Positions 11,700-60,916 of a stretch of DNA of 64,000 bases are shown here, one piece after another. Source of the stretch: Candidatus Dojkabacteria bacterium (lineage in GTDB: Bacteria; Patescibacteriota; Dojkabacteria; JAHIVN01). The position numbers and the translations under genes are program-made. The stretch is taken from assembly GCA_016932045.1 (NCBI GenBank), contig JAFGDO010000001.1, positions 1,014-65,013 of the forward strand, given 5' to 3'. The notes beneath the pieces were generated by a model. That model worked only from the letters and a program-made list of their open reading frames with translations. It was not told the origin of the DNA and made no database searches. How positions within the stretch are numbered: the first letter of the stretch is position 1; every line of letters begins with the position of its first letter.

Positions 11700-11863
11700 A
11701 TATATATAATGAATATAATAATAAATGATTTCAACAATTATACTAGGATAAGCTTTTTTATTGAAGCAGAGATGTATACAAAAAAGCCAATAGTAAAACT
11801 TGACAAAATTAACAAGAGTATTACAATAACTATTGAAATAGTTTAACGAAATTCTGCTCGTTA

Positions 11864-11877
11864 TTTTACATATAAAT
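11864..11877 (+). promoter_or_regulatory. Second copy of the TTTTACATATAAAT promoter-like motif, 8 nt upstream of the ATG at 11886.
   Basis: Exact 14/14 identity with 9934-9947. Confidence 0.3.
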
Positions 11878-11885
11878 TAACTACA

Positions 11886-12839
11886 ATGGACAAAAAAGCA
11901 CTATATATATTTGGAATTCTTATTATTGTATTTTTTTTGCTTAGCATGGAATTCTTTCTTGTTAGAGAGTTTGCCTGTCCAGAATCTAAATTGGAAGACA
12001 AAGAAGTTACTATTCAAGAAAGTGAAGCCCCTAGAGCTCAGGCAATGATGATTCTTATAGAATTCCAGCAGACTGATGGTCTGGTTAACATGGTCAATGA
12101 CATGAAAGAACAGGATATTTATGGCCTACTAATGGTTACTCCAGAATTTGTTGAGGCAAATGCAGAAACAATTAAAAAGGTACTCGAAGTAGGAAACATT
12201 GAAATAGTGCCTACACATGTTAAAGAACCTTTGTGGGATATTCCATATGATAAACAATACGATATCATCTCAGATATGGTTGAGCGTATAGAATCAGCAG
12301 TTGGCATAGAGGCAAGAATCATAAGCTCTAGATATATGGCATCAGATGAAAATACTATAAAGGTAGCAGAAAAATTAGGAATTGAGTACGTAATGGCAAG
12401 AGGAACAACAGAACTTGCGATGACAGTTTATAAACCGGAGGAATATGACGTGAAAGTTCTATCGGTTTCAAATATTGATACTCCTGAGTTCAAATATGGA
12501 AGCTTATGTGATTATAGCTACTATGAGAGAGCCGGCAATCCCGAGGATATGCTCGAGGACCTTCAAAGAGCAGCCGAAGAAGAGAAATTCTTTGGAGTTT
12601 CTCATACATATATAGGCGGGTACAAAGAAAGATGGAATGACATGTGGCATGAATTTTGGAATAATGATCAAGTCGATTGGGTAGAGCTTGATACAATATC
12701 TAATGTCGATAAGAACCTGCCGATGTGGCAAATACCAATAAACAAGAATGCACCATATACGCCTGAGAAAATCAGACCGTTAATACCTTATGAAGAGGAA
12801 GAGAATGTAGATAATCCTTGTACTGTCGAAGACTTGTAA
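11886..12839 (+). CDS. Hypothetical membrane-anchored protein.
   Basis: N-terminal TM (ALYIFGILIIVFFLLSMEFFLV). Acidic soluble domain without recognised motifs. Confidence 0.4.
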   Translation: MDKKALYIFGILIIVFFLLSMEFFLVREFACPESKLEDKEVTIQESEAPRAQAMMILIEFQQTDGLVNMVNDMKEQDIYGLLMVTPEFVEANAETIKKVLEVGNIEIVPTHVKEPLWDIPYDKQYDIISDMVERIESAVGIEARIISSRYMASDENTIKVAEKLGIEYVMARGTTELAMTVYKPEEYDVKVLSVSNIDTPEFKYGSLCDYSYYERAGNPEDMLEDLQRAAEEEKFFGVSHTYIGGYKERWNDMWHEFWNNDQVDWVELDTISNVDKNLPMWQIPINKNAPYTPEKIRPLIPYEEEENVDNPCTVEDL

Positions 12840-12850
12840 AAAGAGATTAA

Positions 12851-13345
12851 ATGAAAAATAAATATATATCCATTACAATAATATCTATATTAATGATCAC
12901 AGGTGCAGGTCTAGCCTCATATTTCATTTTCAGTAATCAAAATAAAACTGAAACCTATACAGCTTCAACAAGCACTGTATCTACTACTACACAAGATAAT
13001 GATACACAAAACAATATTACAGACTCGGAAGGAAATGATGCCCAAACTGCTAGTGAACAAACAATAGTAATGTATCATAACGGCACAGGCCCCATGTGTA
13101 TTGAAGCTTTAGATTTCTTTGAAGAACAGGGAATTGAATTCAAGGAGCATCTCAATACAGAAGAAGGCTTTAAAGATTTACTAAGTTCAGAAAAAGAAAG
13201 GTTTAATGGCGTAAGCGAAGGAGTCTCAGATTCTTTTGGATACTACCCAATTATCATAATTGAAACCAGAGCTTTTTCAGGTTTTGACGATAATGTTAAG
13301 AGTGAGATTCTATCAATATTAAATGCAGCCCCTGCTGAATCCTAA
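12851..13345 (+). CDS. Membrane-anchored/secreted protein with a Thr-rich linker and an ArsC/Spx-like (glutaredoxin-fold) domain.
   Basis: Signal anchor, TASTSTVSTTTQDNDTQNN linker, then IVMYHNGTGPMCIEALDFFEEQGIEFKEH, which resembles the YHNxxC...L..GIE pattern of ArsC/Spx-family thioredoxin folds. Weak call. Confidence 0.35.
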   Translation: MKNKYISITIISILMITGAGLASYFIFSNQNKTETYTASTSTVSTTTQDNDTQNNITDSEGNDAQTASEQTIVMYHNGTGPMCIEALDFFEEQGIEFKEHLNTEEGFKDLLSSEKERFNGVSEGVSDSFGYYPIIIIETRAFSGFDDNVKSEILSILNAAPAES

Positions 13346-15156
13346 AACAACTTTGTAAAAATATTGAGCAGATTATAAACAAGAAATGCCATCACCCAAG
13401 CAACTGCAAATGAGGTAACAATCCTGGCAATCAAAAACTTCCAACTCTTAACCTCATTCTTTATAGCTGAACAGGTTGCTATACACGGTGTATAGAGATT
13501 TGCAAAAACGAGAAATGAAATTGCCTGAAAGGGAGTGAGGGCTCTAAGTAATGCATTTTGCAAACCTCCTTCGCCTACACCAAATAGTACGCCAAAAAGC
13601 CCAATGAATATCTCCTTTGCTAAGAAACCAAAGATAAGCGAAACAGAAAATTCCCAAAAACCAAAACCCAGGGGATTAAATAAAAGAATGATAGAGTTAC
13701 CGATTTGCCCAAGCAGACTGTCGCTTGAACCATACTCAACCCCAAGCGGAAAACTTGAAAGAAACCATATTCCGATGATTGCTAGAAATATGATAGAACC
13801 TGCCTTTTTGATAAATAAAACTGTCTGAGCCCAGGATCTTTTTAGAATATTTTTTATAACTGGCTTTCTATACGGTGGTAGTTCAAGTAATAAAGTTGTA
13901 TCACCTGTTTTATAAACAAATTTTGAAAGTATAACACCAACGACTAACCCGACTAAAATGTTCAATAAATACAAAATAGTAACAACAGAAATACCGATAC
14001 TGGGAAAAAATGTTATTGCCAAATATATATTTAAAGGCAAACAAGCACTACATGGTATAAAGGGAACAAGAAACATAGCTATCAATTTTTCTTTTTTATT
14101 ATGGATTGTACGAGTTGCAAGTACAGCAGAAACGTTACATCCGAAACCAAGTATTAATGGTATAAATGATCGACCTGAGATTCCAATTTTTTCAAACAGT
14201 CGATCAACAAGAACAACCGTACGAGATAAATATCCCGTATCCTCAAACAGGTATATAAAAATATAGAAAATTAGAATTATGGGTGTAAAAGAAAGTACTG
14301 CTCCCAATCCTCCTATGACCCCATCCGTTATGAAGGATCTCAAAATAGGTGAAGGATTAAGAGAAGTGATTATTTCTCCAATCAGAGAAAACAGGTATTC
14401 CACTCCATCAACAAGAGGTAAAGAAATCTTAAAAGTCGCAAGAAACATTAGATACATTAATAAAAGAAGAATTGGAAAGGCTGTAAACTTATTTAGAAAG
14501 ATCGAATCGATCTTATACAAAATTCTTTCTGATTTTGTCTTTACAAGTGGAGTTATACTCTCATTTAGAAATTGCCGAGCTTTCTTGTGATTTATTTCTT
14601 TATCCGGTTTTAGAAATTTGTGAATATACTTGGGGACTTTATAATCTTTTTTACTGATTCTTACGATTTTGTCGATAAGCTCACATTTATTCTCACCTGT
14701 ATGCGCCTCAATATTTACTATAGGAATTTTAAGTATCTTCTCAATCTTCTGATATTCAATTTTTACACCCCTTCTTTTAGCCTCTTTATTGAAATTGAAT
14801 GCTAGTAATAATTTCTTCCCGAGCACAAGAAGTTCCATAGTCAAAAACAAATTCCTTACGAGCGTATTAACATCTACAATTTGAACTACGATATCTAACT
14901 CTCTACTTAACATGAAATTCCTAGCTATTTCTTCCTCTTCTGAAAATGGTGCTATACTGTAAATTCCTGGCAAATCAACAAATCTGATTTCTTTTCCCTT
15001 ATAATTTACTTTTCCCTCGCATTTTTGCACAGTCTTCCCCGGCCAGTTCCCAACGTGATATGATGCCCCAGTTAAACAATTTAAAAGAGAGGTTTTTCCT
15101 GTATTTGGATTTCCAATGAGACCAACAACAATTGTTTTAGTTTTAATATTATTCAC
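13342..15156 (-). CDS. feoB: Ferrous iron transporter FeoB (G-domain plus permease); probable GTG start.
   Basis: GNPNTGKTSLLNCLTG (G1), VDLPGIYS (G3), then multi-TM permease with the conserved gate region. The start codon at 15156 is GTG on the minus strand and overlaps feoA. Confidence 0.9.
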   Translation of the reverse strand: MNNIKTKTIVVGLIGNPNTGKTSLLNCLTGASYHVGNWPGKTVQKCEGKVNYKGKEIRFVDLPGIYSIAPFSEEEEIARNFMLSRELDIVVQIVDVNTLVRNLFLTMELLVLGKKLLLAFNFNKEAKRRGVKIEYQKIEKILKIPIVNIEAHTGENKCELIDKIVRISKKDYKVPKYIHKFLKPDKEINHKKARQFLNESITPLVKTKSERILYKIDSIFLNKFTAFPILLLLMYLMFLATFKISLPLVDGVEYLFSLIGEIITSLNPSPILRSFITDGVIGGLGAVLSFTPIILIFYIFIYLFEDTGYLSRTVVLVDRLFEKIGISGRSFIPLILGFGCNVSAVLATRTIHNKKEKLIAMFLVPFIPCSACLPLNIYLAITFFPSIGISVVTILYLLNILVGLVVGVILSKFVYKTGDTTLLLELPPYRKPVIKNILKRSWAQTVLFIKKAGSIIFLAIIGIWFLSSFPLGVEYGSSDSLLGQIGNSIILLFNPLGFGFWEFSVSLIFGFLAKEIFIGLFGVLFGVGEGGLQNALLRALTPFQAISFLVFANLYTPCIATCSAIKNEVKSWKFLIARIVTSFAVAWVMAFLVYNLLNIFTKLF

Positions 15157-15379
15157 CTTCTACCTTTATCTCGATCTTCTGAGCTAAATTATTCCTTACA
15201 GCAATATATGTATTCATTATCTCATAAATTTTTGGACTTCTCATTGGCGATTCCCTTGTCATTATAATGTCAACTCCCTCAATCAACCCCATACTATGAA
15301 GTCTCTCCCTAATGCTGTGAGGTAAATTTATTTTAACGACTTTTGCTTTTTGATTGCTTTTTAACTCATTTAGATTCAT
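15149..15379 (-). CDS. feoA: FeoA family protein.
   Basis: 76-aa SH3-like FeoA pattern (LxxLKxGQKAxVxxI...RLxxMGLxxGxxI) directly upstream of, and overlapping, feoB. Confidence 0.7.
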   Translation of the reverse strand: MNLNELKSNQKAKVVKINLPHSIRERLHSMGLIEGVDIIMTRESPMRSPKIYEIMNTYIAVRNNLAQKIEIKVEGE

Positions 15380-16254
15380 AATCTTTCCATAAGCTTATTA
15401 TAAATCTTTTGAATTTCATCACAAGCTTTTATATTACTTTCCACAACAGGCCTCAACTCCACAATACTTTTAACAACTTTTTTATCATATGAAATACTTC
15501 CCAGATAATTTTCATCTGCAAACTTCTTAATCTTTACTGAGATCTGTTTATTTAAATCACATTTATTTAAAACTATCCCGTAAGGAATTTCAAAATGTGT
15601 TACTACTGATAAAACTCTCTTAAGATCGGAAAAAGATGAAAGTGAAGGTTCAGCAACAGCTATTATGTAATCAGATCCCTTTATAGAAGCTATGATCGGA
15701 CAGCCAATACCAGCTGCTGCATCTTGAATAATAATCGAATGCTTTTCCTGAATTTGTTTCGCATAAGTTCTGATCTCTACAACTGCTTCTCCTGATTCGG
15801 CTTCCCCAGGTTTTATCTGTCCCTGTATTACTGGAAATCCCCATTTTGTATCAAATCTGGTCAACAAACAGTTTTTTACAGGTTTAAGCTTTATTGCATT
15901 GAATGGACAGACTATCTCGCACAAACCGCAACCTTCGCATTTATAGGATACTAGTCGTACCTCTTTCTTTTTGCTCAGTTCTAAGGCTTGGAAATTGCAA
16001 GCTGATATGCAAGCACCGCACCTTTTACATTTAGTCTTGTCAATAAAGGGTTTACTTGTTGTGCTAATTTCTTTGGAGAACTTTGCATTCTGGGGATTAG
16101 AAGTATCTATGCCCAGCCATAAAGCAAGATTTGGCGCGTCAACATCACAATCTATAGCTACAAGTTCATTATTTTTTGAAAAAAGAATGGCAAGAGACGA
16201 TGCCAGTATACTCTTACCAACACCACCCTTTCCTGAAACAACGGTAATTCGCAT
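15376..16254 (-). CDS. MinD/ParA-superfamily P-loop ATPase with an inserted 2x[4Fe-4S] ferredoxin domain (COG1149-type).
   Basis: Deviant Walker A GKGGVGKS. Two CxxCxxCxxxCP motifs (CKRCGACISACNF; CEGCGLCEIVCPF). Confidence 0.8.
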   Translation of the reverse strand: MRITVVSGKGGVGKSILASSLAILFSKNNELVAIDCDVDAPNLALWLGIDTSNPQNAKFSKEISTTSKPFIDKTKCKRCGACISACNFQALELSKKKEVRLVSYKCEGCGLCEIVCPFNAIKLKPVKNCLLTRFDTKWGFPVIQGQIKPGEAESGEAVVEIRTYAKQIQEKHSIIIQDAAAGIGCPIIASIKGSDYIIAVAEPSLSSFSDLKRVLSVVTHFEIPYGIVLNKCDLNKQISVKIKKFADENYLGSISYDKKVVKSIVELRPVVESNIKACDEIQKIYNKLMERL

Positions 16255-16271
16255 TTCAAATTTATTTTAAA

Positions 16272-17462
16272 TTATCTTCTGCCCCGGACCCTAACCCCTC
16301 TTCTACGTAAGGCTCTTTTAGCATTTTTCCCTATATTCCCGGCTACAACTTCGTCAGCTCCAATAGCTTTAGCAAATCTAACTCCATGCCCTCTTCCTAT
16401 TCTATAATACGGATTCTTTATCTTTTTGCTCAACTTTACCTTTCCTTTCAACTTATCCTCAACTAAATACTCCGGAGCACCAAAGTCATCCACTTGCTTA
16501 TCTTCTCTATAGGGATAGATAGTCCGCCTTCCTTTTTTCCTAATATCAATACTCGGATAAATTTTATTCCCATGCTCAAAAAACTTTTGTACTTTACCTT
16601 CTCTTGACATACGAAATCTCTCATCTGTTCCTTTTACTTGAATTACAACATGTTCTACACTATTTATCTTCTGAATTATTAGCGATTGTAAATCAGAAAT
16701 AATTTGATCCGCTTTCCCTACCTTTACTTCAGATGGAAGAGTAATGGTCAATTCAACAAATATCCTAGCACCTACTTTTCTTGATTTAATCTCAGTTAAA
16801 TTCACCTGTTGTTTTTCGCATATTTTTCTGATCTGATTTTCCACTTCCAGATCAGCAACATCAAGCACGCCCTCTATCACTTCCTTGCCTAATGGTATTA
16901 AGGATAGAATTATATAAATTCCTAAAACCAACGCTACTATACTATCAAGTGCAGGTATATATCTTGCAAAAATAATTCCTAAAAGTACTCCAATAGACGA
17001 AAAAACATCTATCTGAGAATGCTTCCCATCTGTTACTAGAGAGACACTATTCTCTGCCTTACCAGTTTTTATTTTTAAATATGACATAATTCCACACACA
17101 ACCGAAGAAAAAGCCATTATCCCAAAGGCCAAGACATTTACCTGTAGATCAAAATTCTTCTCTAGAAGGCTAACTATTGCATCATAAATAATAGTCATAC
17201 TTGAAATCAGAACCATTAGAAAAACTAGTAAACTTGAGACTGTTTCAGTTCGATAAAGTCCGTAGGGAAATTTTTTTGTTGGAGGTTTCTCTGATAATTT
17301 TACCCCTAGAAATACCAAAAAAGATGATAATATATCTGATAGAGAATCAATTCCCGAGGCAATTATTGAATTACTTTTTGCTACTAATCCTATACCTATC
17401 TTGGATACAGTTAACAACACATTTACAAATGTACTTAGTATAGAGACTTGTTTCCTATTCAC
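16272..17462 (-). CDS. Cation diffusion facilitator (CDF) transporter with a C-terminal extension resembling a NifX/NifB-type FeMo-cofactor-binding domain.
   Basis: Six TM CDF core with SLSDILSS and HSQIDVFSSIG motifs. The C-terminal ~100 aa (GHGVRFAKAIGADEVVAGNIGKNAKRALRRRGVRV) look like the C-terminal half of a Nitro_FeMo-Co domain. Confidence 0.7.
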   Translation of the reverse strand: MNRKQVSILSTFVNVLLTVSKIGIGLVAKSNSIIASGIDSLSDILSSFLVFLGVKLSEKPPTKKFPYGLYRTETVSSLLVFLMVLISSMTIIYDAIVSLLEKNFDLQVNVLAFGIMAFSSVVCGIMSYLKIKTGKAENSVSLVTDGKHSQIDVFSSIGVLLGIIFARYIPALDSIVALVLGIYIILSLIPLGKEVIEGVLDVADLEVENQIRKICEKQQVNLTEIKSRKVGARIFVELTITLPSEVKVGKADQIISDLQSLIIQKINSVEHVVIQVKGTDERFRMSREGKVQKFFEHGNKIYPSIDIRKKGRRTIYPYREDKQVDDFGAPEYLVEDKLKGKVKLSKKIKNPYYRIGRGHGVRFAKAIGADEVVAGNIGKNAKRALRRRGVRVRGRR

Positions 17463-17478
17463 AACGAAAAAAAATTAA

Positions 17479-18315
17479 TTAATCTAATAGATGTATTAAA
17501 GACTCATTATGCAAAAAATTCCCGGATGAATAATCTTTTGCTAACACTTTATTGTAAAGTATTCTTACACTTATCTGCGTTTTATTTTCTCTTGCAATAT
17601 TTATAATTTTTTTCATATCTCCAACGTCATATTGATTTGCTACAACTTCGCTTCTGATTTTCATAACTTTTAAAACTTTTAATATTATATTTAGATCGTG
17701 TGCACCAACAGGTGTCGGTTCTGTAACGGCATACGCTTTCTCAACACCTTCTAAAGCTGCCATTACCGTACAATGCGAACCTGCTGCTGTATCATAAATT
17801 ATCAAATCAAAATTATGCATCATGGTTTCAACAAATTGTTTTGTTTCCTTTACTACAGGACTCGTTTCTCTTATTCCTGGTTTACTTATACCTGTTACTA
17901 AAGTAAAATTATTCTTGATTTCATTTAAATATATCTCCCCATTCTCTACTTTTTTCTTTATTATTGCCTTTTCTGGACATATTGTCCAACATACACCGCA
18001 AGAGGAGCACAGCTCTTCGTTTATTTGCGGGAATTTCCCTTTAGGTTGGAATATTGCATTTGATCTACAGCTTTTCACACACATGCCACACTTGGTGCAC
18101 TTGCTTTTCAATATTTCCGGATAATATGTGTAAGTCTTCTTTAAAGAATCTTCTAGTTTCTTAATACCAAGAATGATATAGTCATTAGGACACTCAACAT
18201 CACAATCAACTAAAAGTACTTTTTTTCTCCTAGAAATTTCCTTAAGTGCAAATAGGATAGAAAAGGTAGATTTTCCTGTTCCTCCTTTCCCCCCGGTAAC
18301 TGCTATTTTTTTCAC
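17479..18315 (-). CDS. Second MinD/ParA-like P-loop ATPase with 2x[4Fe-4S] ferredoxin insert (COG1149 paralog).
   Basis: GGKGGTGKST Walker A. CTKCGMCVKSCRSNAI and CSSCGVCWTICPEKAI ferredoxin motifs. Confidence 0.8.
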   Translation of the reverse strand: MKKIAVTGGKGGTGKSTFSILFALKEISRRKKVLLVDCDVECPNDYIILGIKKLEDSLKKTYTYYPEILKSKCTKCGMCVKSCRSNAIFQPKGKFPQINEELCSSCGVCWTICPEKAIIKKKVENGEIYLNEIKNNFTLVTGISKPGIRETSPVVKETKQFVETMMHNFDLIIYDTAAGSHCTVMAALEGVEKAYAVTEPTPVGAHDLNIILKVLKVMKIRSEVVANQYDVGDMKKIINIARENKTQISVRILYNKVLAKDYSSGNFLHNESLIHLLD

Positions 18316-18623
18316 TTTTGAATATCTTTAAGAATATCTTTTATAGTTTGATTTTTTACTAACTCTATTTTGATGTTTCCTTGTGTGACTGCCTGTTGTG
18401 TATTGGGACCAATATTTACACAATACACTTTTTCCACTTTATTATCTAGAAGAGTCTGTGCCGCAGCAATTCCTGCCCCACGTTGCTGAGAAGCTCCCGG
18501 ATTTTCTATAAATGTAAGATTCTCAGCTAAAGTGTCATATACAGCAAAGAAATTACACCTGCCAAAAACCTCAGACACCTCTGCATTCTCGCCTTTTTCG
18601 TCAACACAAATAGCTAATTTCAT
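18312..18623 (-). CDS. NifX/NifB-like dinitrogenase FeMo-cofactor-binding domain protein.
   Basis: MKLAICVDEKG...VSEVFGRCNFFAVYD...GAGIAAAQTLLDNKVEKVYCVNIGPNTQQAVTQGNIKI matches the Nitro_FeMo-Co fold pattern (FGRxPYFxIYD...GxGxxAAxxL...GVxVV...GIG..A...L...GI.V). Overlaps the upstream ATPase by 4 nt. Confidence 0.7.
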   Translation of the reverse strand: MKLAICVDEKGENAEVSEVFGRCNFFAVYDTLAENLTFIENPGASQQRGAGIAAAQTLLDNKVEKVYCVNIGPNTQQAVTQGNIKIELVKNQTIKDILKDIQK

Positions 18624-18652
18624 AACTTTAACAGTAAAAAGTTAAATAAAGA

Positions 18653-20107
18653 TTACAATAAACCAACTAACATTGCTATGCCTAAACAAGCAATTATTAA
18701 ACCAGCAACTAAATGTAGTATTCTAATCTTTTTATCCTTCCACTCAGATATATCTTCTACCTTTGAAATACCAAAATAGACAATACAAGTAATGAGCAAC
18801 ATAGGGGAAATAAAAATAAGATTGTATATAATAAGATGTGGTATGGATTTTAATGTATCCTCAAATGATAACATACCGCCTAAGATTATATATGGGCCTA
18901 TCGTACATGGAAGAAGAAACAAAGTGACGAATAAACCCACACCAAATGCCCCATTAGGCGAAGTGATACCTTCTATAATCTTTTTGATCTTAGGTCTTAA
19001 AGACATCGGCATTTCTGTACCCAAGCTCCCCGGCTTATAACTTAGAAAATCTTTAATCTGCAAAACACCAAGAATAATTGCCATAATCCCAAAGAATTTG
19101 TAAAGGATCAGCCTTATATTTGTGATAGCTTGAACAATCTTAAAGAATCGAATAATCACTAATCCATATACCATGTACATTATAAAAACTGAAAATGAAA
19201 AGGCTAATCCTGCAAGTATGATATTTTTCTTATTCTTTGGATTATAAGAAATAATGGCTATCAGCATCATAGTTAAGACAGCAAGAGCGCATGGATTTAC
19301 AGCATCAACCGCAGCAAGTGAAATAGTCTTTCCTAACAATACTTTTGTCTGTTCAATTTCTCCGCTTGAATTATTTTCTTCTTGTTCATTGCTAATTTCA
19401 ACACTTTCACCTTTAACCGAAGGTCCGTTCCACTGCAATATCCAGCCTTCAACCTTTGCAGCATTATCAAAATGAACAGATGAGCCTGAAAGTTGCACAT
19501 CTTGCTCCTCAATTATTTGAATACTATTCTGTTCAAAAAGTCCATTTATATCTACACCTGAAATGAATTCTTTAATTATTTCGTTACTTCCATTTTGATT
19601 CTGCTCTGTCTTAATTGCTACTCTATCTTTTGTCCAAACTTTCGGCTTACCAGAAAGATCCGAAATATTTCCGATTGAAACACTTGATCCATCGCTTAAG
19701 GGTAATTTATTTCCAGCATGATTTTCATATTCCTCTCTAAAAGACGATAAAATCGGTTTATCACCAACAATATTTTTATCTTTATCGAAAATAACAAGAG
19801 GAATATGATATCCACAATTATAGTTTGTATTGTATTCATCTATGAATATAGCATTTTGACTTTCCTGATAAACTTCATATTCAACAACGACAAGATCCGG
19901 ATACTCATGCAGCCAGTCTTTTAGTAATATAGAATCAACCTTAGCACAATGCGGGCAGCCAATACCCGTAAAATAAACTACAAAGGTAGGCTCATTAACT
20001 TGAGCTGAAACATTAGTTATAGAAATAAATGCAAATATAACTATTGTGAGAGGGATAAGAAAAGTTCTTTTTATTAATTCCTTGAACTTATCAATTATTC
20101 TTTTCAT
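18653..20107 (-). CDS. Secreted thioredoxin-like domain fused to a CcdA/DsbD-type transmembrane thiol-disulfide transporter.
   Basis: Signal peptide. VVYFTGIGCPHCAKV (CxxC thioredoxin motif). C-terminal 6-8 TM with AVNPCALAVL and LLPCTIGPYI, the two conserved Cys of the CcdA/DsbD beta domain. Confidence 0.7.
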   Translation of the reverse strand: MKRIIDKFKELIKRTFLIPLTIVIFAFISITNVSAQVNEPTFVVYFTGIGCPHCAKVDSILLKDWLHEYPDLVVVEYEVYQESQNAIFIDEYNTNYNCGYHIPLVIFDKDKNIVGDKPILSSFREEYENHAGNKLPLSDGSSVSIGNISDLSGKPKVWTKDRVAIKTEQNQNGSNEIIKEFISGVDINGLFEQNSIQIIEEQDVQLSGSSVHFDNAAKVEGWILQWNGPSVKGESVEISNEQEENNSSGEIEQTKVLLGKTISLAAVDAVNPCALAVLTMMLIAIISYNPKNKKNIILAGLAFSFSVFIMYMVYGLVIIRFFKIVQAITNIRLILYKFFGIMAIILGVLQIKDFLSYKPGSLGTEMPMSLRPKIKKIIEGITSPNGAFGVGLFVTLFLLPCTIGPYIILGGMLSFEDTLKSIPHLIIYNLIFISPMLLITCIVYFGISKVEDISEWKDKKIRILHLVAGLIIACLGIAMLVGLL

Positions 20108-20384
20108 AAGATAACAGACACTTCAAAATCTTTAATATTTTTGGTCTTTGACTTTTTCTAATAGAATATTTTATATGCAGTCCAATTTTTCTGCTTTTTA
20201 AAATGCCTAAATCTGTCAATACCTTTAAGTGATGGGATATCAAATTATTTGGAATATCTAGTTTCTCTACCAACTCACAAGCACATGTTTCCCTTTTGCT
20301 TAATATAAACAGAATCTTCACTCTATTCAACTGAAGCAACTTTTTAATCCTTTTGATATTTTTATCTAGACTCTCTGCTATCAT
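20091..20384 (-). CDS. ArsR/SmtB-family winged-helix transcriptional regulator.
   Basis: ETCACELVEKLDIPNNLISHHLKVLTDLGIL is an ArsR-type HTH with a metal/redox-sensing Cys pair. The 3' end overlaps the trx-ccdA fusion gene by 17 nt. Confidence 0.75.
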   Translation of the reverse strand: MIAESLDKNIKRIKKLLQLNRVKILFILSKRETCACELVEKLDIPNNLISHHLKVLTDLGILKSRKIGLHIKYSIRKSQRPKILKILKCLLSYEKNN

Positions 20385-20599
20385 TTTTTTTACAAATAGA
20401 TTTTTAAGTATTTCAATTACGATTGAAATACTATCATTTTTAATTTACTTCGTCAAGAAAAGCAGTCTTCCTTAAGAATCAAAACATAGAAAGCAATTAT
20501 CTTAAATGGCTACTTATTTGATATAAGAAAGAATAATTAGTACTTAATGCAGATTAAACGAAAGGCATATAAATCACTCTTTACTACTACTACCATATT

Positions 20600-21823
20600 T
20601 TGATATCCTACATAATAATTTCTTTTCCTTTTATTTTCTTCCTAATGAAAAATAGTATTTTGAAATACTTTATAAAGAAAAAAGGAGATATATTCTCAAT
20701 TTTACTTTTTCTGTTAATCATTTTTTTAGCCTGGGTATTCATACCTAAAATTCCTCTTTTGAAAAGAGAAGGACAGGTAGTCAAATATATTGACCCCATC
20801 TATGTAACTGTTGCAGATGTAAAACAAAACACAGTAACTGAAATTGACGTTAAACAAAATGAAATTGAAATGCTAGAAGATACAATTGGTTTCTATCTAC
20901 CAAATGGAGAATACAGAGAGATAACTCTTTCCCACCTTTCAGATGACTATAGAGTTAGAGAGGGAGATCATATAATAGTCTATTCTTTTGATGATCAAAC
21001 TTACTTCTACCATGATATAAATAGAGTTTATTACTTAAAGTATTTAATAATATTATTTATTATTATTGTAGCGTTAATCGGAGGCATCCTTGGTGTAAAA
21101 GCATTATTATCCCTTGGTTTTTCATGCGTAATTTTGATCCTTGGACTCATACCCCTTCTGGAAAAAGGATATGATCCCATTCTTGTTATTATTGGAATAG
21201 GATTTCTCATAATTTCCTCGTCTTTATTCTTTTTATACGGATTTAAAAAGAGGACTCTTATCGCACTACTAGGTACTTCAATAGGATTATTCTTATCATC
21301 ACTACTTAGCCTGCTTTATGTTGACCTACTTAGACTGACAGGCATTCAGGACGAAATCGACAGCTTTTTATACAGCTATTCTCCAGTAAATTTTAATATG
21401 AAAAATTTACTGACAGGAAGTTTTATACTTGGAACACTCGGGGTTATAGATGATGTAACAATCAGCCAGGTGATAACTGTAGAAGAGATCTACAATAATG
21501 CTAAAAACATCTCGACCAAGGAGTTGTTTCTTTCTGCCATGAAAATTGGCAGGAGTCATATTGCCTCAATGGTCAATACACTTTTTCTTGCTTATTTTTC
21601 CGTTTCGTTATCGCTTATACTTGTTGTTTCGATGCAGAACTGGGATATCAATTTACTTCTCAACAAACGTTTTATAGCAACAGAAATAGTCAGAACCTTG
21701 GTAGGAAGCATGGGTTTAGTTGTTTCTGTCCCAATAACCACTTATCTCTCGTGCATAGCACCCAAAAAGACAATTCTAAAAAAACCAACAAAATATTTGT
21801 TGAAGCTTTTCCAGAAAGCTTAG
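20600..21823 (+). CDS. Polytopic membrane protein, possibly YibE/F-like.
   Basis: N-terminal TM, about 100-aa soluble region, then about 8 TM helices. Family assignment from overall architecture only. Confidence 0.4.
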   Translation: MISYIIISFPFIFFLMKNSILKYFIKKKGDIFSILLFLLIIFLAWVFIPKIPLLKREGQVVKYIDPIYVTVADVKQNTVTEIDVKQNEIEMLEDTIGFYLPNGEYREITLSHLSDDYRVREGDHIIVYSFDDQTYFYHDINRVYYLKYLIILFIIIVALIGGILGVKALLSLGFSCVILILGLIPLLEKGYDPILVIIGIGFLIISSSLFFLYGFKKRTLIALLGTSIGLFLSSLLSLLYVDLLRLTGIQDEIDSFLYSYSPVNFNMKNLLTGSFILGTLGVIDDVTISQVITVEEIYNNAKNISTKELFLSAMKIGRSHIASMVNTLFLAYFSVSLSLILVVSMQNWDINLLLNKRFIATEIVRTLVGSMGLVVSVPITTYLSCIAPKKTILKKPTKYLLKLFQKA

Positions 21824-32251: not shown

Positions 32252-35200
32252 TCAGGTACAACTTTTTAAATTACTATATTCACTTCGTAGCCCTAAATTC
32301 CATTGTGCTTCTTGCCGGTTTCTACCTCTGTAGTCGATTATCACACCTTGAAATTCAAACTGCCCGAAAATATTTGTTCTTGCCTTTACATAATCATTCA
32401 CATTGAGCTCGCTATTCAAAGTAAAGACTTTTTGAAATCTGCCGCTCAAATCATCATTCCAAATATGCCCGACTTCAGTATCTTCCCCATTGTCTTTATG
32501 AAAGGAGATCATAACGTGTTCAACTTGGAATCTATTGCCTCTATATTCCTTTACCTCTCTCCATGTAGTTTTTTTATTTTCAAGACACCACGGAACAAAG
32601 AAACACTGCTTATCCATTTCCCAAATCCAGGAACTAAGTCTTTCTATCCCCATCTTTTCTTCAATACAACGTCTCTCGCCATTATCAATGAAATAACCTA
32701 CATCGCACTCTTTAACCGCTTCGTTATAAGTCTTATACTCCCTTTTTATATCTGCAGTTAATGAATGCCCCTTTGGAATTGCAACACCATACACTTCTAC
32801 TAATCCATCTTCAGTTGTATATACTGTAGTCAACTCTGGAGTAGGAATAAATACTCCGTTGATGTTATAGTTCTCATCTGAGCTAATACTGATATCTAAA
32901 TTAACATCTGACAAAGAACTCCCATATCTGTCCCCCCATGGATTCTCAGAAACTTCTCCTTCAACATCACCTATCGCCCAAGTCGGCGTATGGTAAATTC
33001 CAGTTACAGTTTCAGAGAAATTTCTAGCACGATCCTGGAGTTGGACATCAACTCTGTATTCTGCCCCCCACATCCAACTTGTAAAAGAACTTAATTTTAG
33101 CTGCCTATTTTCATCTATTTTATACTCCTGTTCACCTAAATCAATACCACTTCTATAAATATGAACTTTTACCTTAGAATACTTTTCTCCTTTTATTTCT
33201 AAGGATAATTTCCTCTGAGCAGGATTACCGTTGAAAAATACTTCTGGTTTCGCAGGCGGCACAGTATCACGTTCGACTTCATATGTAAGTATTTCGGAAT
33301 TATTTCCAGGAGCATCTGTAGATTTCACCTTAATCATATACAATCCATCCTCTTGAGGTCCTGAGTTCTTACCAAAGTTAACATTCTCCTGCCATATACT
33401 TCGAGGCTCATTTTGGAAAGTACAGTAATCTTCAATCCCCTTTGGATTTGTAACCCATAATTCTATATCGCTCAGTCTTTCAGCTTCTCCTTTCAATAGA
33501 ACACTATATTTATTAGTAATATTACCAAAACCATCATCATCCCAGTAATCAGCCGATCTGACTTCATTCGGTTTGCCTGGAGCGGTTTTATCATAGTAGA
33601 GTAATTCTCCTTTTGAAATAGAGCTCTTATTCCCTGCACGATCCTGCACCTTAGTTTGAATAATATAACCTTGTTCGAAAGCACCTATGTTAAGATTAAA
33701 ACTCCAGTCACAAAGAGGATAATAAACACCAGTATATGCCAAAGTTTTACCTTCGCAATTGTCGCTACCAACTAAAATTTCATCGATCTCATATGAACTA
33801 AGCCAGATTTCAACTTTTGAGTTCTCTTCTGCTTTACCTTTAATCTCCAGCTCCCTTCCGCGAATAACATATTCTGGCAGGATTCTTCCCTTTGCCGGCA
33901 ACTCATGTTTTGCATAAATACCGTTGTATTTTCCCCATTCAGATATATCTATATCCGAAAAATTAGGCTTTGTATTATCAATAATATAGGTAAATTCACC
34001 ATTTGCGGCATTTCCGGCATAATCCTCAATATTAATGTCAATACTATAATTTCCTTCATCTGCTTCAGATTCAATGACAAAACCTCCAAGATAGTTTTGT
34101 CTCGAATTATCTCCGAGCAAATGAAACCTAGCTGAATCCTGCCTTATTACTGTAACATAAGTCAGTGCTTCGTTGGATTGAATAAAGATGTCTGCAGCAG
34201 TTCCTGATTGATGAAATGAATTTGAAGTAGTGATATTTCGAAACTCTGGCGCAATTTTATCAAGAACTACATTTACAGGAAAAGAGATTTCGCTCTTATT
34301 GTTTACATTATCGCTACTAACAGAAGAAATTTCATATTTCCTATAACTACTTATAAAGGGTAACTTGATATTTGCCTTCCATTTCCCTGTAGGATCTGCT
34401 TTACAGACATAAACTTCAACACCATCCACAAGGATGTGTACATAACTTAATGGCTCCGCTATACCGTTTATTATCAATTTCTCATCATTTGTATAATAAT
34501 CTTCCCTAAACTTTTTTAAATCTACCAGTAAGTCTTCCTTTATAAGCTTTGTTATAGTAGGCACAACTGGAATAGTTCCATCTATTCGAATGCCAATACT
34601 CATGGTCTTCTCTGTCTCCCCCTTCCTTCCCACGAACTCTATCTCGTAAATTCCACCGCTCACGTCTGGAGTAGTCCATAGATAATCCCATGTGCATTCG
34701 TTTTGGGTACATCCCCTTCCAAAACCATCAACTCGTCCTATTTTGTACCGATCTAATGAACCATCAGGCAACTCAGAAAGATTAGAATAATCTGCAAAAC
34801 TGATATCAACATATTCTGTATATTGTGTTACAAGACTCCTTAGAATTACTTCCTGATCTACCCCTGTAAGCGAAGGTAGAGCTCGCACGCTCAACAAAGG
34901 ATCTGAAAAATCCAAGATTACTTTTACTACATTGCTCTTGGAAGTTTCATTCCCAGAAAAATCAATAGCATAAGCCCAAAGATATGACTCCTTGGTGGTA
35001 AGTGGAACTATCCCTGTAAAAAAGCCGTACTCATTAACCTCCAAAACCTGCTCATCATTACAGTCACCATCAATGCCAATCAGGTCAACACATAATCTTA
35101 CTACAGTATCAAGAGGTGCTTGGCCCTGTACATTTATAACTCCCTTTGCAGTAACCGTGTGGTTCTTCGGATTAGTTATAACAACTTCACCATCAACTTT

Positions 35201-38122
35201 TGTTTTAACATAAAACTTAACTGGATCGGTGCCAAACTCGACCCCATCAGTAGTTCTTATCCATAAAGAATATGTATACTCGCCGTCTGAAAGCCAGCTC
35301 CCGTTACTATCCTTTCCATTAAAGTAATAATTCGGCGGCAGTCCATCAGACCCACTTAATAATGCAACAATATCTTCACCTATATCTTTTATATGAATTT
35401 CCCACACCTCTACTTGCACATCTTCTTCTTGGCTATCTCTGTTATACACTTTTAAAGTAAAATCAATTCCATCCTGCCTGCCATCGCCATTCGGAGAGAT
35501 GTATTCATTATTCCCTTCAATTGATAGATTAACTGCGTATAAATTCACTTCTACATTTAATTCCACTCCTGCAATGTTTTTTGCATTATCAATAAGTTCC
35601 AAACTGATGTTATTTTTAACGTAAATATCATTGACCTGATTCGCCCTCAACTGAAATTCCTCAATTTCAAAATCACACACTTCTTTTACTCCTTCCCAGC
35701 CTATACCAAATCTACTTTCTACCGGATGACAATTGTATATACCTTGCTGATCCGGATTTATATTAATGATAATTTCGGTTTCACTGCCTGTTACATTAAG
35801 TCTTGAATTACTTTCCGCTTGTCCTCTAATGGTAACCTTGGAATGGTTCATTAACTCTCCTTGTAAAGGTGTTTCAATTTGTAAATAAGTATGCGAATCT
35901 AGTGTAAATAGTTCCTTGAAAATATCAGACTGGTTTCCGGCAACATCTCGTACTGTAGACTTAATAGTATAGTCACCATCAGGTTGAAGCGGATTATCAA
36001 AGAAATAAGAATAAATACATTCGAATGATCCCTCGATTTCAACATTTAAACAACTTGTTTCAATATGACCCAATTGTGTTTGGATATTCTTACCATCACT
36101 CACGAGTACAAGTTCATTATTACTTCCCTCAAGTAGAGAAAGATTTATACTTTGCGAATCTATACCACTTTGAAAAATCTCATTATATTCATCAGATAAC
36201 TTGAGATTTATATTTGGAGTTCGATCATTTATCAAACCAATAGGAGCAGTTACTTCTAATTTAGGAACATCAATTTCTTTATTCACTTTTAATGATTGAG
36301 TACTAATATTCCCAGCAGAGTCCATTGCCATAAAAGTAAAAACATTCTCACCCAAACTTAATTGTTCTTCCACTTCGAAAATTCCATAGTGATCTACAAA
36401 AAGTAACCTATTGTTTATGCTTAGCAAGGCTGTCTCCTCAGTTATACCTGAAATAAAGACTGTATCAGTGTTAAGCCAGGCACCATCAATAGGTTTAGAA
36501 ATATTTACAGTAGCAGGAGTATTATCCACTACTACTAAGACATCTGAATCTGGCGAAAAATTTCCAGCTTTATCAAAGGCACGTAACTTAAATGTATACA
36601 GGCCATCTAGAACTATATTTCCTGAATTATCTGTACCATCCCAAATGACCAGATCGCTTAACGAAGTACCCCTAAAACTTTTAATTGTCACATCATATAA
36701 ATCAAGAATGGTTGCTTCCCAATGATCAAAGTGCTCATCAAACACCTCGAAAGAAAGTTCAGTGCTATCAAATCTCCCATCTGCATTCGGACTTATAACC
36801 TCCTCACTTACCTGAGCATTTAAAATTGCCGGTAGGATAGAGTCTTGACGGGATTTTACAAATTCACTCCAGTCGTTCTCATTTCCCAACTTATCCTTTG
36901 ACTTTACTTGATAGCAATAAGTAGCATCGTGGTACAAATCCGCTATAGTAAATTCTTGAGATTCCTGCCAGTCGCCTTCATAAAAATAAGTGTTACAATT
37001 CTCGCCTTCAAAGACGCCAAATTTGTATTTTACTTCTTTTAGTAATGAATCAAAACTTAAAGTTGACCTAACTGTATTCTGATTTCCTTGAGAAAATTCC
37101 GGTTCCCCTATAACTTCAGGAGATGACGGAGGAGTGGTGTCTATAATAAATGTGTATATTGCCGAATAGTCACTCCACACATCCATCTGATCTTTTGATC
37201 TTGTCTTCCACTCCCAGATACCATCAGGTAAGAATTTTGTAAACTGCGCGGTTTTTTGACCGTCACGCTTCGGTGAAATTTCCCAGTCTCTATCTTTTAA
37301 CCTTTTATAGTAAAACCAAGTACCATCAAAGTTACCATCAGGATCCCCAAGATCTTTAACTTTCATAGTAATCTCATATCCTTGGCAAGAAGAATCTCCT
37401 CCAAACTCTGCTTTATTTGTCGGACTTGTAGGATTTGGTATATTTGGAGCATGATTTGCAGAGTAATTAACAACGAGTCGGGGTTGACTAGATTCAAAGC
37501 AGGTTGAGTTATTATAATTTCGAGTACACCAGAAACCTCCAACATTCCCTTGGTCCTTATATAGCACAAGACCATAATTAGAAATGCCCTGTACCCACTC
37601 CCTTACAAGATTTGTAACATCAAAAGTGTATTTTTGTGGAGGATTAAACCACTGTCCCGCCCCTCCCGAAATCCAACTTTGTGCATAGATGCCGCTAAAA
37701 TCGGGTTTATTATTCCAATTAACGTTCATCTCTGACCAATCTTGATTCACTTTCGCTACATTGACTAGGTAATCTCCAGATGCATAATCACTTCGGACAT
37801 ACTGATAAACTTCTAAATATGCAGATTCGATAATTGACTGAGAACTCAGCATAGACAAATCAAACTTAATGTACGCATATGAATTTGAAAAATAATTACC
37901 TAGATTCCAGCTTCTTCCGACAGTCATATCGTTCCAGGATCCATAATTCTTCTCAAATCCTTCTCTTGCCATAGCATCTGCAACAGGAGTAAGATTCAGC
38001 TGAGAAGAAGCTTGAACGTCATCATAAGATTGACTAACGGCAAAAATCAGCGACGTTAAAACACTTTGAGCTATAAAAAATAGTATTATGCGAAGAAACT
38101 TGTTAAAATAATTCTTACTCAA
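32252..38122 (-). CDS. Giant (1956 aa) secreted multi-domain surface protein (adhesin-like).
   Basis: Signal peptide. N-terminal module (GSWNDMTVGRSWNLGNYFSNSYAYIKFDLSML...AYLEVYQY) resembles DNRLRE/carbohydrate-binding-type domains. It is followed by dozens of approximately 90-110-aa beta-rich, Ig-like repeats. No C-terminal TM. Confidence 0.7.
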   Translation of the reverse strand: MSKNYFNKFLRIILFFIAQSVLTSLIFAVSQSYDDVQASSQLNLTPVADAMAREGFEKNYGSWNDMTVGRSWNLGNYFSNSYAYIKFDLSMLSSQSIIESAYLEVYQYVRSDYASGDYLVNVAKVNQDWSEMNVNWNNKPDFSGIYAQSWISGGAGQWFNPPQKYTFDVTNLVREWVQGISNYGLVLYKDQGNVGGFWCTRNYNNSTCFESSQPRLVVNYSANHAPNIPNPTSPTNKAEFGGDSSCQGYEITMKVKDLGDPDGNFDGTWFYYKRLKDRDWEISPKRDGQKTAQFTKFLPDGIWEWKTRSKDQMDVWSDYSAIYTFIIDTTPPSSPEVIGEPEFSQGNQNTVRSTLSFDSLLKEVKYKFGVFEGENCNTYFYEGDWQESQEFTIADLYHDATYCYQVKSKDKLGNENDWSEFVKSRQDSILPAILNAQVSEEVISPNADGRFDSTELSFEVFDEHFDHWEATILDLYDVTIKSFRGTSLSDLVIWDGTDNSGNIVLDGLYTFKLRAFDKAGNFSPDSDVLVVVDNTPATVNISKPIDGAWLNTDTVFISGITEETALLSINNRLLFVDHYGIFEVEEQLSLGENVFTFMAMDSAGNISTQSLKVNKEIDVPKLEVTAPIGLINDRTPNINLKLSDEYNEIFQSGIDSQSINLSLLEGSNNELVLVSDGKNIQTQLGHIETSCLNVEIEGSFECIYSYFFDNPLQPDGDYTIKSTVRDVAGNQSDIFKELFTLDSHTYLQIETPLQGELMNHSKVTIRGQAESNSRLNVTGSETEIIININPDQQGIYNCHPVESRFGIGWEGVKEVCDFEIEEFQLRANQVNDIYVKNNISLELIDNAKNIAGVELNVEVNLYAVNLSIEGNNEYISPNGDGRQDGIDFTLKVYNRDSQEEDVQVEVWEIHIKDIGEDIVALLSGSDGLPPNYYFNGKDSNGSWLSDGEYTYSLWIRTTDGVEFGTDPVKFYVKTKVDGEVVITNPKNHTVTAKGVINVQGQAPLDTVVRLCVDLIGIDGDCNDEQVLEVNEYGFFTGIVPLTTKESYLWAYAIDFSGNETSKSNVVKVILDFSDPLLSVRALPSLTGVDQEVILRSLVTQYTEYVDISFADYSNLSELPDGSLDRYKIGRVDGFGRGCTQNECTWDYLWTTPDVSGGIYEIEFVGRKGETEKTMSIGIRIDGTIPVVPTITKLIKEDLLVDLKKFREDYYTNDEKLIINGIAEPLSYVHILVDGVEVYVCKADPTGKWKANIKLPFISSYRKYEISSVSSDNVNNKSEISFPVNVVLDKIAPEFRNITTSNSFHQSGTAADIFIQSNEALTYVTVIRQDSARFHLLGDNSRQNYLGGFVIESEADEGNYSIDINIEDYAGNAANGEFTYIIDNTKPNFSDIDISEWGKYNGIYAKHELPAKGRILPEYVIRGRELEIKGKAEENSKVEIWLSSYEIDEILVGSDNCEGKTLAYTGVYYPLCDWSFNLNIGAFEQGYIIQTKVQDRAGNKSSISKGELLYYDKTAPGKPNEVRSADYWDDDGFGNITNKYSVLLKGEAERLSDIELWVTNPKGIEDYCTFQNEPRSIWQENVNFGKNSGPQEDGLYMIKVKSTDAPGNNSEILTYEVERDTVPPAKPEVFFNGNPAQRKLSLEIKGEKYSKVKVHIYRSGIDLGEQEYKIDENRQLKLSSFTSWMWGAEYRVDVQLQDRARNFSETVTGIYHTPTWAIGDVEGEVSENPWGDRYGSSLSDVNLDISISSDENYNINGVFIPTPELTTVYTTEDGLVEVYGVAIPKGHSLTADIKREYKTYNEAVKECDVGYFIDNGERRCIEEKMGIERLSSWIWEMDKQCFFVPWCLENKKTTWREVKEYRGNRFQVEHVMISFHKDNGEDTEVGHIWNDDLSGRFQKVFTLNSELNVNDYVKARTNIFGQFEFQGVIIDYRGRNRQEAQWNLGLRSEYSNLKSCT

Positions 38123-58556: not shown

Positions 58557-59582
58557 ATGGTAAAGAGCAATAGGTACAAAATTCCTAAATACTCTGAAGA
58601 TCAGAGTATTTCAATTGGTAGAAACAACCTATATAAGATACGATCGGGCAAAGGAAAGCTTGTATTTACCGGAGCCTACATACATCTTGCACCAATTTGC
58701 AACTTTAGATGCAAAGGATGTTTTACTCATATGGGTAAATTACCCACACAAAGACTTGCGTATAAAGAAATAAAGTATATTGTGGATTTTGCAAAGGGAA
58801 GAGGAGCAGAATCAATAGTTTTTGCTGGAGCAGGTGAGCCAACACTGGACCCCGAGTTTGACCGGATCTGTAACTACATCTCCTCAAAAAAGCTAAATAT
58901 TGTTCTTTTTACCAACCTGACAACTTTGAAAACAAAAGAACAAGCAAAAAAATACTTAAAATCAGGACCTGTTATTGGGAAACTATATTCTCTCAATGAA
59001 GAAAAATACAACAAAATCACTAGTTGTAAGGGAGCATACAAGTCTGCACTCAAAGGATTAGAATTCCTGCTAAACGCAAAGAAAGAATTGGAAAAACCCG
59101 AAGTAACACTTGCAATAGACTCATATATTAGTAGAGATAATTATAAAGATCTTCCAGACCTACTCAGATTCTGTAGGAAAAAAGACATAATTCCATACTT
59201 TGAAGCATTTATAGAGCTTGGACAAGATAAAAAAATAGTTAAGAAATTAGCATTAGGTGGAAAAGAACTGGCTGAATTATTCTTAGAGCTTCAGAGAATT
59301 GACAAAGAGGAATTTGCTATATCTACTCAGATTCATCCATGGAGTAGAAATTATGGTCAGGATAGATGTAGAAAAGCAACACACATGTTTTCTGTAAGGG
59401 AAAATGGGGATATCTGTATATGTGTTTGTACTGAAAGGAAAGTGGGAAACATCTCTGATTGCAAGAACCCATACGAGAGTCTCGAAAGCACCTTTTCCCT
59501 ACCAGCCAAACATCTCCTCCAATATCTTATCTGTGATAACTGCTCCAAAACCATAAACCCCACGTACTTAAATCAGAACTAA
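58557..59582 (+). CDS. Radical SAM enzyme with C-terminal Cys-rich SPASM/twitch-like extension.
   Basis: CNFRCKGC (CX3CX2C), GAGEPTLDP (SAM-binding GGEP-like), C-terminal CRKATHMF...GDICICVCTE...CKNPYE...CDNCS. Confidence 0.75.
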   Translation: MVKSNRYKIPKYSEDQSISIGRNNLYKIRSGKGKLVFTGAYIHLAPICNFRCKGCFTHMGKLPTQRLAYKEIKYIVDFAKGRGAESIVFAGAGEPTLDPEFDRICNYISSKKLNIVLFTNLTTLKTKEQAKKYLKSGPVIGKLYSLNEEKYNKITSCKGAYKSALKGLEFLLNAKKELEKPEVTLAIDSYISRDNYKDLPDLLRFCRKKDIIPYFEAFIELGQDKKIVKKLALGGKELAELFLELQRIDKEEFAISTQIHPWSRNYGQDRCRKATHMFSVRENGDICICVCTERKVGNISDCKNPYESLESTFSLPAKHLLQYLICDNCSKTINPTYLNQN

Positions 59583-59606
59583 TCTTAGAAAATCATTGAG
59601 ATAATA

Positions 59607-60515: not shown

Positions 60516-60610
60516 ACTTGCAGTCCAAATGGGTATTGACCCCCTTTGTTTTACATGCTATACTTCAATGAGTTATCATCCACTACTATATTATTTTTTA
60601 AAATAATACT

Positions 60611-60826: not shown

Positions 60827-60916
60827 TTTGTTATTGAAGGGGACCAGATATATCTGGTCCCTACTGCAGAAATATGATACCATTCCTTATGTTTATAAAT
60901 TTTTATATTTTTAAAC

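Follow-up and report, generated by a model that had tools for sequence, protein, structure and literature searches.

The ORP-type module, in which NifX-like carriers and ferredoxin-MinD ATPases are combined with DUF134 and DUF5320, occurs widely among anaerobes, and the function of the module is still obscure although the orange protein (ORP) has been known for more than 20 years. Here we describe a related set of genes in a stretch of 64,000 nucleotides (nt) from a Candidatus Dojkabacteria bacterium (contig JAFGDO010000001.1; the whole stretch is called the window in the following), where they run together with a gene for a cation diffusion facilitator (CDF) transporter that carries a NifX-like domain at its C-terminus. 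The arrangement points to an ORP-like iron-sulfur (Fe-S) handling module physically coupled to an exporter of divalent metal, probably Fe2+, a reading towards which we lean with modest confidence. ORP-like modules with a dedicated fused CDF are present in the databases yet unremarked, and they are widespread in the bacterial Candidate Phyla Radiation (CPR) and in DPANN archaea.

Several described systems provide points of comparison. In Desulfovibrio, the ORP complex contains Orp8/ORP, a protein of the Nitro_FeMo-Co fold that binds a Mo-Cu-sulfide cluster non-covalently, alongside two paralogues, Orp3 and Orp4, that each have two [4Fe-4S] motifs; the complex also includes a small Fe-S protein and MrpORP (Orp9), a P-loop::Di-Nase fusion with Fe-S bound by both domains (PMC6345978). 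IssA of Pyrococcus furiosus is a cationic, nearly Cys-free protein that holds iron and sulfide as thioferrate and reloads ferredoxin (PMC5524996). An ANME-2a genome is reported to place a CDF gene next to those of 4Fe-4S proteins, of a Di-Nase protein and of a P-loop NTPase, with none of them fused (PMC12622379), and FmpB of RS-1 carries a NifX/NifB domain (PMC4287615).

In the window, the corresponding genes belong to a run of eight co-oriented genes on the minus strand (13342-20384), listed here in their order of transcription:

20091-20384, minus strand: ArsR/SmtB-family helix-turn-helix (HTH) regulator (HTH_5 E 9e-14; NF033788 61 bits against a cut-off of 55)
18653-20107, minus strand: membrane protein with a thioredoxin-like CPHC N-terminus and a DsbD_2/CcdA-like transmembrane region (DsbD_2 E 2e-6)
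18312-18623, minus strand: stand-alone NifX-like protein of 103 amino acids (aa), isoelectric point (pI) 5.1 (Nitro_FeMo-Co E 4e-19)
17479-18315, minus strand: MinD-ferredoxin ATPase, group A (CbiA/ParA P-loop and two Fer4 domains)
16272-17462, minus strand: CDF transporter with a fused NifX-like domain, 396 aa (matches to Cation_efflux and ZT_dimer, weak match to Nitro_FeMo-Co)
15376-16254, minus strand: MinD-ferredoxin ATPase, group B (CbiA/ParA P-loop and two Fer4 domains)
15149-15379, minus strand: FeoA (E 4e-18; 65.7 bits against 23)
13342-15156, minus strand: FeoB, 604 aa (TIGR00437 520 bits against a cut-off of 315.65)

A first-pass annotation, made from the sequence of the window, had described six co-oriented minus-strand genes, from the NifX-like gene to feoB. 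All six open reading frames (ORFs) lie where it had placed them and its labels agree with the domain matches. The co-oriented run extends further upstream on the same strand, through the genes for the membrane protein and the ArsR regulator, of which the latter is probably the first gene of the operon.

The fused transporter is built from the following parts:

16875-17441, minus strand: CDF transmembrane domain, residues 8-196, six helices (Cation_efflux E 1e-37; helices of the AlphaFold2, AF2, model)
16635-16847, minus strand: canonical CDF cytoplasmic domain ZT_dimer, residues 206-276 (E 5e-8; AF2 model)
16557-16625, minus strand: disordered, poorly conserved linker, residues 280-302, about 25 residues (predicted local distance difference test score, pLDDT, below 50; variable, gapped alignment columns)
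16275-16547, minus strand: extra C-terminal NifX-like domain, residues 306-396, 91 residues (profile, hhalign and fold evidence)

The protein belongs to the CDF superfamily, with 130 bits to PF01545 (gathering score 26.6), 33.2 bits to PF16916 (gathering score 26.7) and 181.8 bits to the superfamily model TIGR01297 (cut-off 82.35). Its best structural and sequence matches are FieF/YiiP and MamM/MamB, with which it shares the six transmembrane helices, the ZT_dimer C-terminal domain and probably the DD-HD form of site A, yet it stays far below every equivalog cut-off (MamM 128 bits against 350, MamB 119 against 350, MntE 105 against 500, FieF 93.5 against 420). A magnetosome-like system can be rejected, since mam/mad genes are lacking and the MamM/MamB scores, despite being the best named matches, fall far short of their cut-offs. 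What distinguishes the window protein from FieF/YiiP and MamM/MamB is the linker and the NifX-fold domain that follow the C-terminal domain; we know of no characterised CDF with such a domain in this position.

The full-length AF2 model of the transporter (pLDDT 80.5) shows the tail confidently folded at residues 312-393, with its elements in the order beta-beta-beta-alpha-beta-alpha-beta. That the tail is merely the standard CDF cytoplasmic domain is excluded, because ZT_dimer (206-276) is present besides it; the proposal of an additional Nitro_FeMo-Co-type domain at 306-396 is borne out. Matched as a single sequence against Nitro_FeMo-Co (PF02579), the C-terminus stays sub-threshold (residues 339-392 against profile positions 22-77 of 94, E 1.2e-3, 19.6 bits); the assignment holds at the level of family, profile and fold. 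PF02579 is matched by 26 of 33 full-length relatives at E<=0.01, with a best E of 2.4e-15. A profile of the tail alone finds MTH1175 (1eo1), PH0822 (2yx6) and TM1816 (1o13) in the PDB at E 2e-6 to 1e-4, MTH1175 being the top match, and hhalign relates the tail profile to the neighbouring 103-aa NifX-like gene with 93.8% probability. The tail-only AF2 model (pLDDT 93) superimposes in Foldseek on 2yx6, 1o13 and 2wfb (Desulfovibrio gigas ORP) with template modelling (TM) scores of 0.75-0.77, and further matches include TM1290, MTH1175, Ta1041m and MJ0327. Taken together, the profile, hhalign and fold evidence identifies the tail as a diverged homologue of the Nitro_FeMo-Co (MTH1175/ORP/NifX-fold) family without the last helix. 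In the clade of the window it stops just past the last strand (…GVRVRGRR*), and the terminal helix is present in longer relatives. The tail carries the motifs KKGxRxIxPY, DFGAPEYLV, NPY..GRGHG and IGxNA, has a pI of 10.9 and holds no cysteine.

In its chemistry the tail resembles IssA, which belongs to the same IPR003731 fold family, was modelled on MTH1175, is cationic with almost no cysteines and acts in a context of iron and sulfur handling. IssA differs in being soluble, with a Gly/Arg/Trp-rich tail, and in forming giant particles, whereas the window domain is truncated and tethered to a transporter. By analogy, the tail may bind an Fe-S or metal-sulfide cofactor. Its fold is also that of NifX, NafY and the NifB C-terminal domain, with Foldseek matches to NifX in the NifEN complex (9ian_F) and to NafY (1p90). 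The Pfam name 'Nitro_FeMo-Co' is nonetheless misleading here. To our knowledge, CPR organisms are not diazotrophs, and a nitrogenase cofactor role is rejected on two grounds: the scan of window genes against Pfam/NCBIfam, which covered a small part of the 64-kb window, turned up no nif genes, and the 103-aa protein is not NifX sensu stricto (TIGR02663 23 bits against a cut-off of 112).

The fusion had been regarded in the first-pass annotation as an arrangement not known to be described, and a full-text literature search indeed found no paper on a CDF::NifX-like fusion. As a peculiarity of the window, however, it does not stand: it represents a large family of CPR and DPANN database entries. 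About 65 full-length proteins from Patescibacteria share this architecture at 34-74% identity (type 1). A hidden Markov model search with the tail profile, covering 1.84 billion cluster representatives, returned 36 matches at E<=1e-10, all of them full-length fusions or fragments thereof, and its second tier includes 8 more distant CDF fusions. Querying with one distant fusion (type 2) retrieved at least 562 proteins at E<=1e-10; the best 120 of these all combine Cation_efflux (PF01545), ZT_dimer (PF16916) and Nitro_FeMo-Co (PF02579), and come from Aenigmatarchaeota, Woesearchaeota, Diapherotrites, Thermoplasmatota and Microgenomates. In the databases, all fusions are labelled just 'cation diffusion facilitator family transporter'. 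With the architecture kept in more than 180 inspected proteins, a read-through or frameshift artefact is ruled out as its origin.

The genomic neighbourhood of the fused CDFs is conserved as well. Across 11 sampled loci with a fused CDF, the window included, NifX-like genes and MinD-ferredoxin ATPases occur within 7 kb of it in eight, and DUF134 and/or DUF5320 are present in all seven related loci of those eight. Two of the loci (L014 and L015) show the fixed order DUF134, NifX, CDF::NifX, ATPase A, ATPase B. In the related loci, COG1149-type ATPases, NifX-like genes and DUF134 do indeed occur together, as had been expected. Seen in more than 180 inspected proteins, and with its NifX and MinD-ferredoxin neighbourhood kept in 8 of 11 loci, the fused arrangement is beyond chance. 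The clusters L006 and L013 also contain the thioredoxin/DsbD-like membrane gene, at 47% and 30% identity, respectively, and divalent-metal transporters or iron regulators recur in the clusters, namely ZIP (L013), ABC-3 (L010), FeoAB with DtxR-FeoA (L012) and DtxR (L016).

A second, independent fusion links the CDF to the same module. The closest CDF relatives without a NifX tail, proteins of about 350 aa from Pacearchaeota and Pacebacteria with 36-41% identity, end in a G/R-rich double-CPxCG zinc-ribbon tail. This tail is homologous to genes of 67-72 aa that lie between DUF5320 and NifX in three related clusters (L008, L009 and L010), and the zinc-ribbon-tailed CDF of L016 sits within the same module. 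The window holds a homologue of these small genes and of the tail of the ~350-aa CDFs, directly upstream of the DUF134 gene and unlinked to the operon:

60611-60826, plus strand: 71-aa G/R-rich protein with two CPKCG zinc-ribbon knuckles (homology E 1e-16 and E 4e-16)
60917-61201, plus strand: DUF134 protein, sigma-70 region 4-like HTH (E 6.6e-14)

The latter is the DUF134 gene that the first-pass annotation had placed 42 kb from the cluster, and it lies there; no DUF5320 gene was identified in the window. Judged by homology, then, the CDF is fused, depending on the lineage, to two different components of one module. Because these two Rosetta-stone fusions join it in different lineages to two module components, the CDF can be counted as an integral partner of the module.

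The surroundings of the unlinked pair hold further genes. The strand opposite the 71-aa gene has a 117-aa ORF (60598-60951) for which Pfam gave nothing at E<=0.001; we consider it spurious, and in annotation it could hide the 71-aa ORF. Beside the pair are a radical-SAM and a radical-SAM/SPASM gene (within 58557-60515 on the plus strand and 55418-58431 on the minus strand), preceded by two genes, one for a 418-aa protein that ends in an OmpR-type winged helix and one for a 586-aa protein lacking Pfam matches; this may be a peptide-maturation locus. Elsewhere in the window we noted a very long ORF (32252-38122, minus strand) that starts with TTG and encodes 1956 aa, and a 228-aa protein (63070-63756, plus strand) with a C-terminal Cys-rich match of the von Willebrand factor type C/pacifastin-like kind, which is unusual in a bacterium.

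The soluble part of the module consists of the 103-aa carrier and two ATPases. The carrier matches MTH1175 (3e-10), TM1290 (2e-7) and D. gigas ORP (2wfb, E 1.2e-4). The group A ATPase has the deviant Walker A motif GGKGGTGKS and an inserted 2x[4Fe-4S] ferredoxin domain with two CxxCxxCxxxC motifs, and the group B ATPase shows the same architecture, a MinD/Mrp-type P-loop with a 2x[4Fe-4S] insert. Across CPR and DPANN the ATPases split into orthologous groups A and B, of which the window holds one each; its A ATPase clusters with the A-type genes of L006, L008, L009, L010, L013, L014 and L015. A and B may form a heterodimer. Beyond the eight ferredoxin cysteines, both ATPases retain Cys directly behind the P-loop strand (DCDVEC in the A protein, DCDVD in the B protein), and a G-x-x-C lies past Walker B, with C182 in A and C185 in B. 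Between subunits, these extra cysteines might build a metal or cluster site like those of CooC or Nbp35.

Compared with the ORP complex of Desulfovibrio vulgaris, gigas and alaskensis, the module likewise has a small carrier of the Nitro_FeMo-Co fold, the window protein matching 2wfb, and two paralogous P-loop proteins with two [4Fe-4S] motifs, which we liken by their architecture to Orp3/Orp4 (DVU2103/2104). A small Cys-rich protein, the restriction to anaerobes and, in MrpORP, a precedent for fusing the carrier domain complete the resemblance. There are also clear differences. MrpORP itself is absent (NF041136 gives 19-43 bits against a cut-off of 450, from partial-domain matches), and the regulators are ArsR in the window and DUF134/DUF5320 elsewhere, not sigma54/OrpR. 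Most importantly, the module described here includes an integral, carrier-fused membrane CDF and attached metal importers, which are unreported for Desulfovibrio.

Overlaps of 4-8 nt throughout, and with them translational coupling, had been proposed for the six genes; from the NifX-like gene to feoB, the first junction is a 4-nt overlap, the next two are gaps of 16 and 17 nt, and the last two are overlaps of 4 and 8 nt, so that the proposal holds for three of the five and fails for the two with gaps. Upstream, the arsR and membrane-protein genes overlap by 17 nt, and 29 nt separate the latter from the NifX-like gene. The GTG start of the CDF gene is backed by the N-termini of homologues, MNK/MDK-KQ(V/I)SILS. 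For feoB, the proposed GTG at 15156, 8 nt into feoA, is the first and sole canonical in-frame start ahead of the G1 motif GNPNTGKT, and in the N-terminal alignment FeoB_N begins at residue 10. FeoAB are identified by the FeoA domain and by the equivalog score of FeoB with its N-terminal G-domain (FeoB_N at residues 10-164), followed by Gate and FeoB_C. Convergent with feoB on the plus strand are a polysaccharide-deacetylase-like protein (11886-12839) and a 164-aa protein with the motif MYHNGTGPMC (12851-13345); in L006, these two appear as one fused 448-aa gene adjoining the cluster (50% identity), which makes them a further conserved neighbour.

Two features lie upstream of the operon:

20407-20432, upstream of arsR: perfect 11-4-11 palindrome AGTATTTCAAT-cgta-ATTGAAATACT, candidate ArsR operator by sequence
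20600-21823, plus strand: YibE/F-like membrane protein, divergent from arsR (E 1.5e-65)

The ArsR protein has the motif ETCACEL, an alpha3 CxC. A promoter-like site, TTGACG-17-TAGTAT with TG, lies on the minus strand at 20456-20428, and the palindrome overlaps its -10 hexamer, which is the look expected for an autoregulated ArsR-family operator. In the scan for promoters and terminators, intra-operon matches were no commoner than in shuffled sequence, and matches were disregarded except for this site, which coincides with the palindrome. The operon is thus a candidate for control by ArsR. In L006, a member of the same YibE/F-like family follows the cluster, along with a thioredoxin.

We propose that one ArsR-controlled operon would join an ORP-complex-like metallocluster module to divalent-metal transport. 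In the module, the soluble NifX-like carrier would be joined by two different MinD-type ATPases, conserved as a pair and with two [4Fe-4S] clusters each. We would place the CDF among the proton-coupled exporters of the Fe/Mn/Zn-CDF type. Held on its flexible linker, the NifX-like domain could be where the membrane pump meets the soluble module, for docking or hand-off; this very basic, Cys-free domain would either hold the anionic metal-sulfide species of the free carrier non-covalently or dock the ATPase pair or the carrier/ATPase complex. In this way, the loading state of the Fe-S machinery would gate the export of surplus metal (most probably Fe2+) or be coupled to it. FeoAB would be the import arm in this genome, and a single repressor that senses metal or thiols would govern import, buffering and cluster handling, and overflow export. 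The idea of a metal or Fe-S hand-off coupled to transport was already part of the first-pass annotation; it keeps the standing of a proposal, strengthened by the CDF::zinc-ribbon fusion and the conserved synteny.

Several observations weigh against this picture. CDFs export, which suits an overflow function and not the supply of metal to cluster assembly. Three of the 11 loci (L004, L011 and L012) have no MinD-ferredoxin ATPases in the stretch read, L012 retaining a NifX-like gene. FeoAB are linked to the fused CDF in just two of the 11, the window and L012, and are not a general partner. The likeness to Orp3/Orp4 is one of architecture, and the role of the ORP complex itself is still just given as 'putatively cell division' (PMC8359166, PMC6345978). 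Apart from these points, L004, a CPR contig from a hypersaline lake, carries a type I CRISPR-Cas set (Cas2, Cas1, Cas4, Cas3-like; 11791-15182) about 3.6 kb from its lone fused CDF.

Further doubts concern the tail. On its own, the window sequence falls below the Pfam gathering score (19.6 against 26.3 bits), the histidine of the HFG motif is replaced by Asp (DFG) here and in 54 of the 65 type-1 tails, there are no conserved cysteines, and the clade of the window has lost the terminal helix. Cofactor binding may therefore be gone, and the tail could be a regulatory or oligomerisation add-on without cofactor, for instance an auto-inhibitory or protein-protein interaction domain on the CDF dimer. 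Nevertheless, the NPY, GRGHG and IGxNA loops are under strong purifying conservation (His359 of GRGHG in 60 of 65 type-1 proteins), HFG is retained in 88 of the 120 type-2 fusions, and the synteny with cluster-handling genes also speaks against such a tail. Moreover, cluster binding by IssA and ORP involves few cysteines or none (PMC5524996; PMC6345978). We regard a cofactor-less tail as unlikely, if deserving of attention.

The metal that would be moved is the second point of doubt. The window CDF has a DD-HD site A, formed by D39-S-L-S-D43 in transmembrane helix 2 (TM2) and H148-S-Q-I-D152 in TM5, an arrangement which we take to be that of YiiP/FieF. D43, H148 and D152 are invariant among the 65 type-1 proteins, 55 of which, however, have an HD-HD site, typical of Zn2+ CDFs; in type 2 the site reads H..D / (E/D)..(D/H), with a TM5 motif (E/D)xxx(D/H). 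Because site A differs between the window protein, most type-1 members and type 2, sequence alone cannot fix the metal specificity, and the metal may differ from Fe2+ or vary within the family, which again counts against the proposed iron export. A zinc or soft-metal system is conceivable on this basis, with a Zn2+-exporting CDF, a thiolate ArsR/SmtB sensor, and NifX-like and zinc-ribbon domains for buffering or sensing Zn. The CxC motif of the ArsR/SmtB regulator, the ZIP and ABC-3 transporters in related clusters and the zinc-ribbon tail of the sister CDFs would agree with it. Against it speak FeoAB and DtxR-family regulators found in the clusters, the abundance of Fe-S proteins in every module, and the CDF core, which scores best against the MamM, MamB, MntE and FieF models and the FieF/YiiP structures and lower against ZitB and Cdf31, as well as the DD-HD site of the window protein. 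In addition, we know of no member of the NifX-fold family that binds Zn. All in all, a zinc system appears distinctly improbable.

That an ordinary metal-homeostasis CDF and FeoAB merely lie beside an ORP-like module for cell division or unrelated redox chemistry is strongly disfavoured and has very little probability: FeoAB linkage in only 2 of 11 loci, a fused CDF that stands alone in two loci and the proposed role of the ORP complex in cell division (PMC6345978, PMC8359166) would allow it, but the covalent fusions to NifX-like and zinc-ribbon components in different lineages and a gene order conserved across the bacterial and archaeal domains oppose it.

Returning to the coupling of an ORP-like module to a metal exporter, a broader and more tentative possibility, for which we claim a limited likelihood, is that CPR and DPANN share an unrecognised membrane-anchored metallocluster system that moves iron or iron-sulfide between a cytoplasmic Fe-S store and the outside. 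In it, a CDF with a covalently attached adaptor, either NifX-fold or zinc-ribbon, would act together with soluble NifX-like carriers and a [4Fe-4S] MinD-type ATPase in heterodimeric form. The tail domain, the ATPase pair and the transporter supply compact constructs and thereby a testable lead for an old orphan system. A CDF exporter integral to the module in the lineages with the smallest genomes provides a Rosetta-stone argument for metal trafficking; it would extend CDF biology by a new class of cytoplasmic accessory domain and would bear on the management of iron and sulfide in organisms with minimal Fe-S biosynthesis. If the broader view is true, the function of the ORP-type module would be metal-sulfide trafficking or detoxification rather than cell division, and these episymbionts might also use the system to exchange metal with their host.

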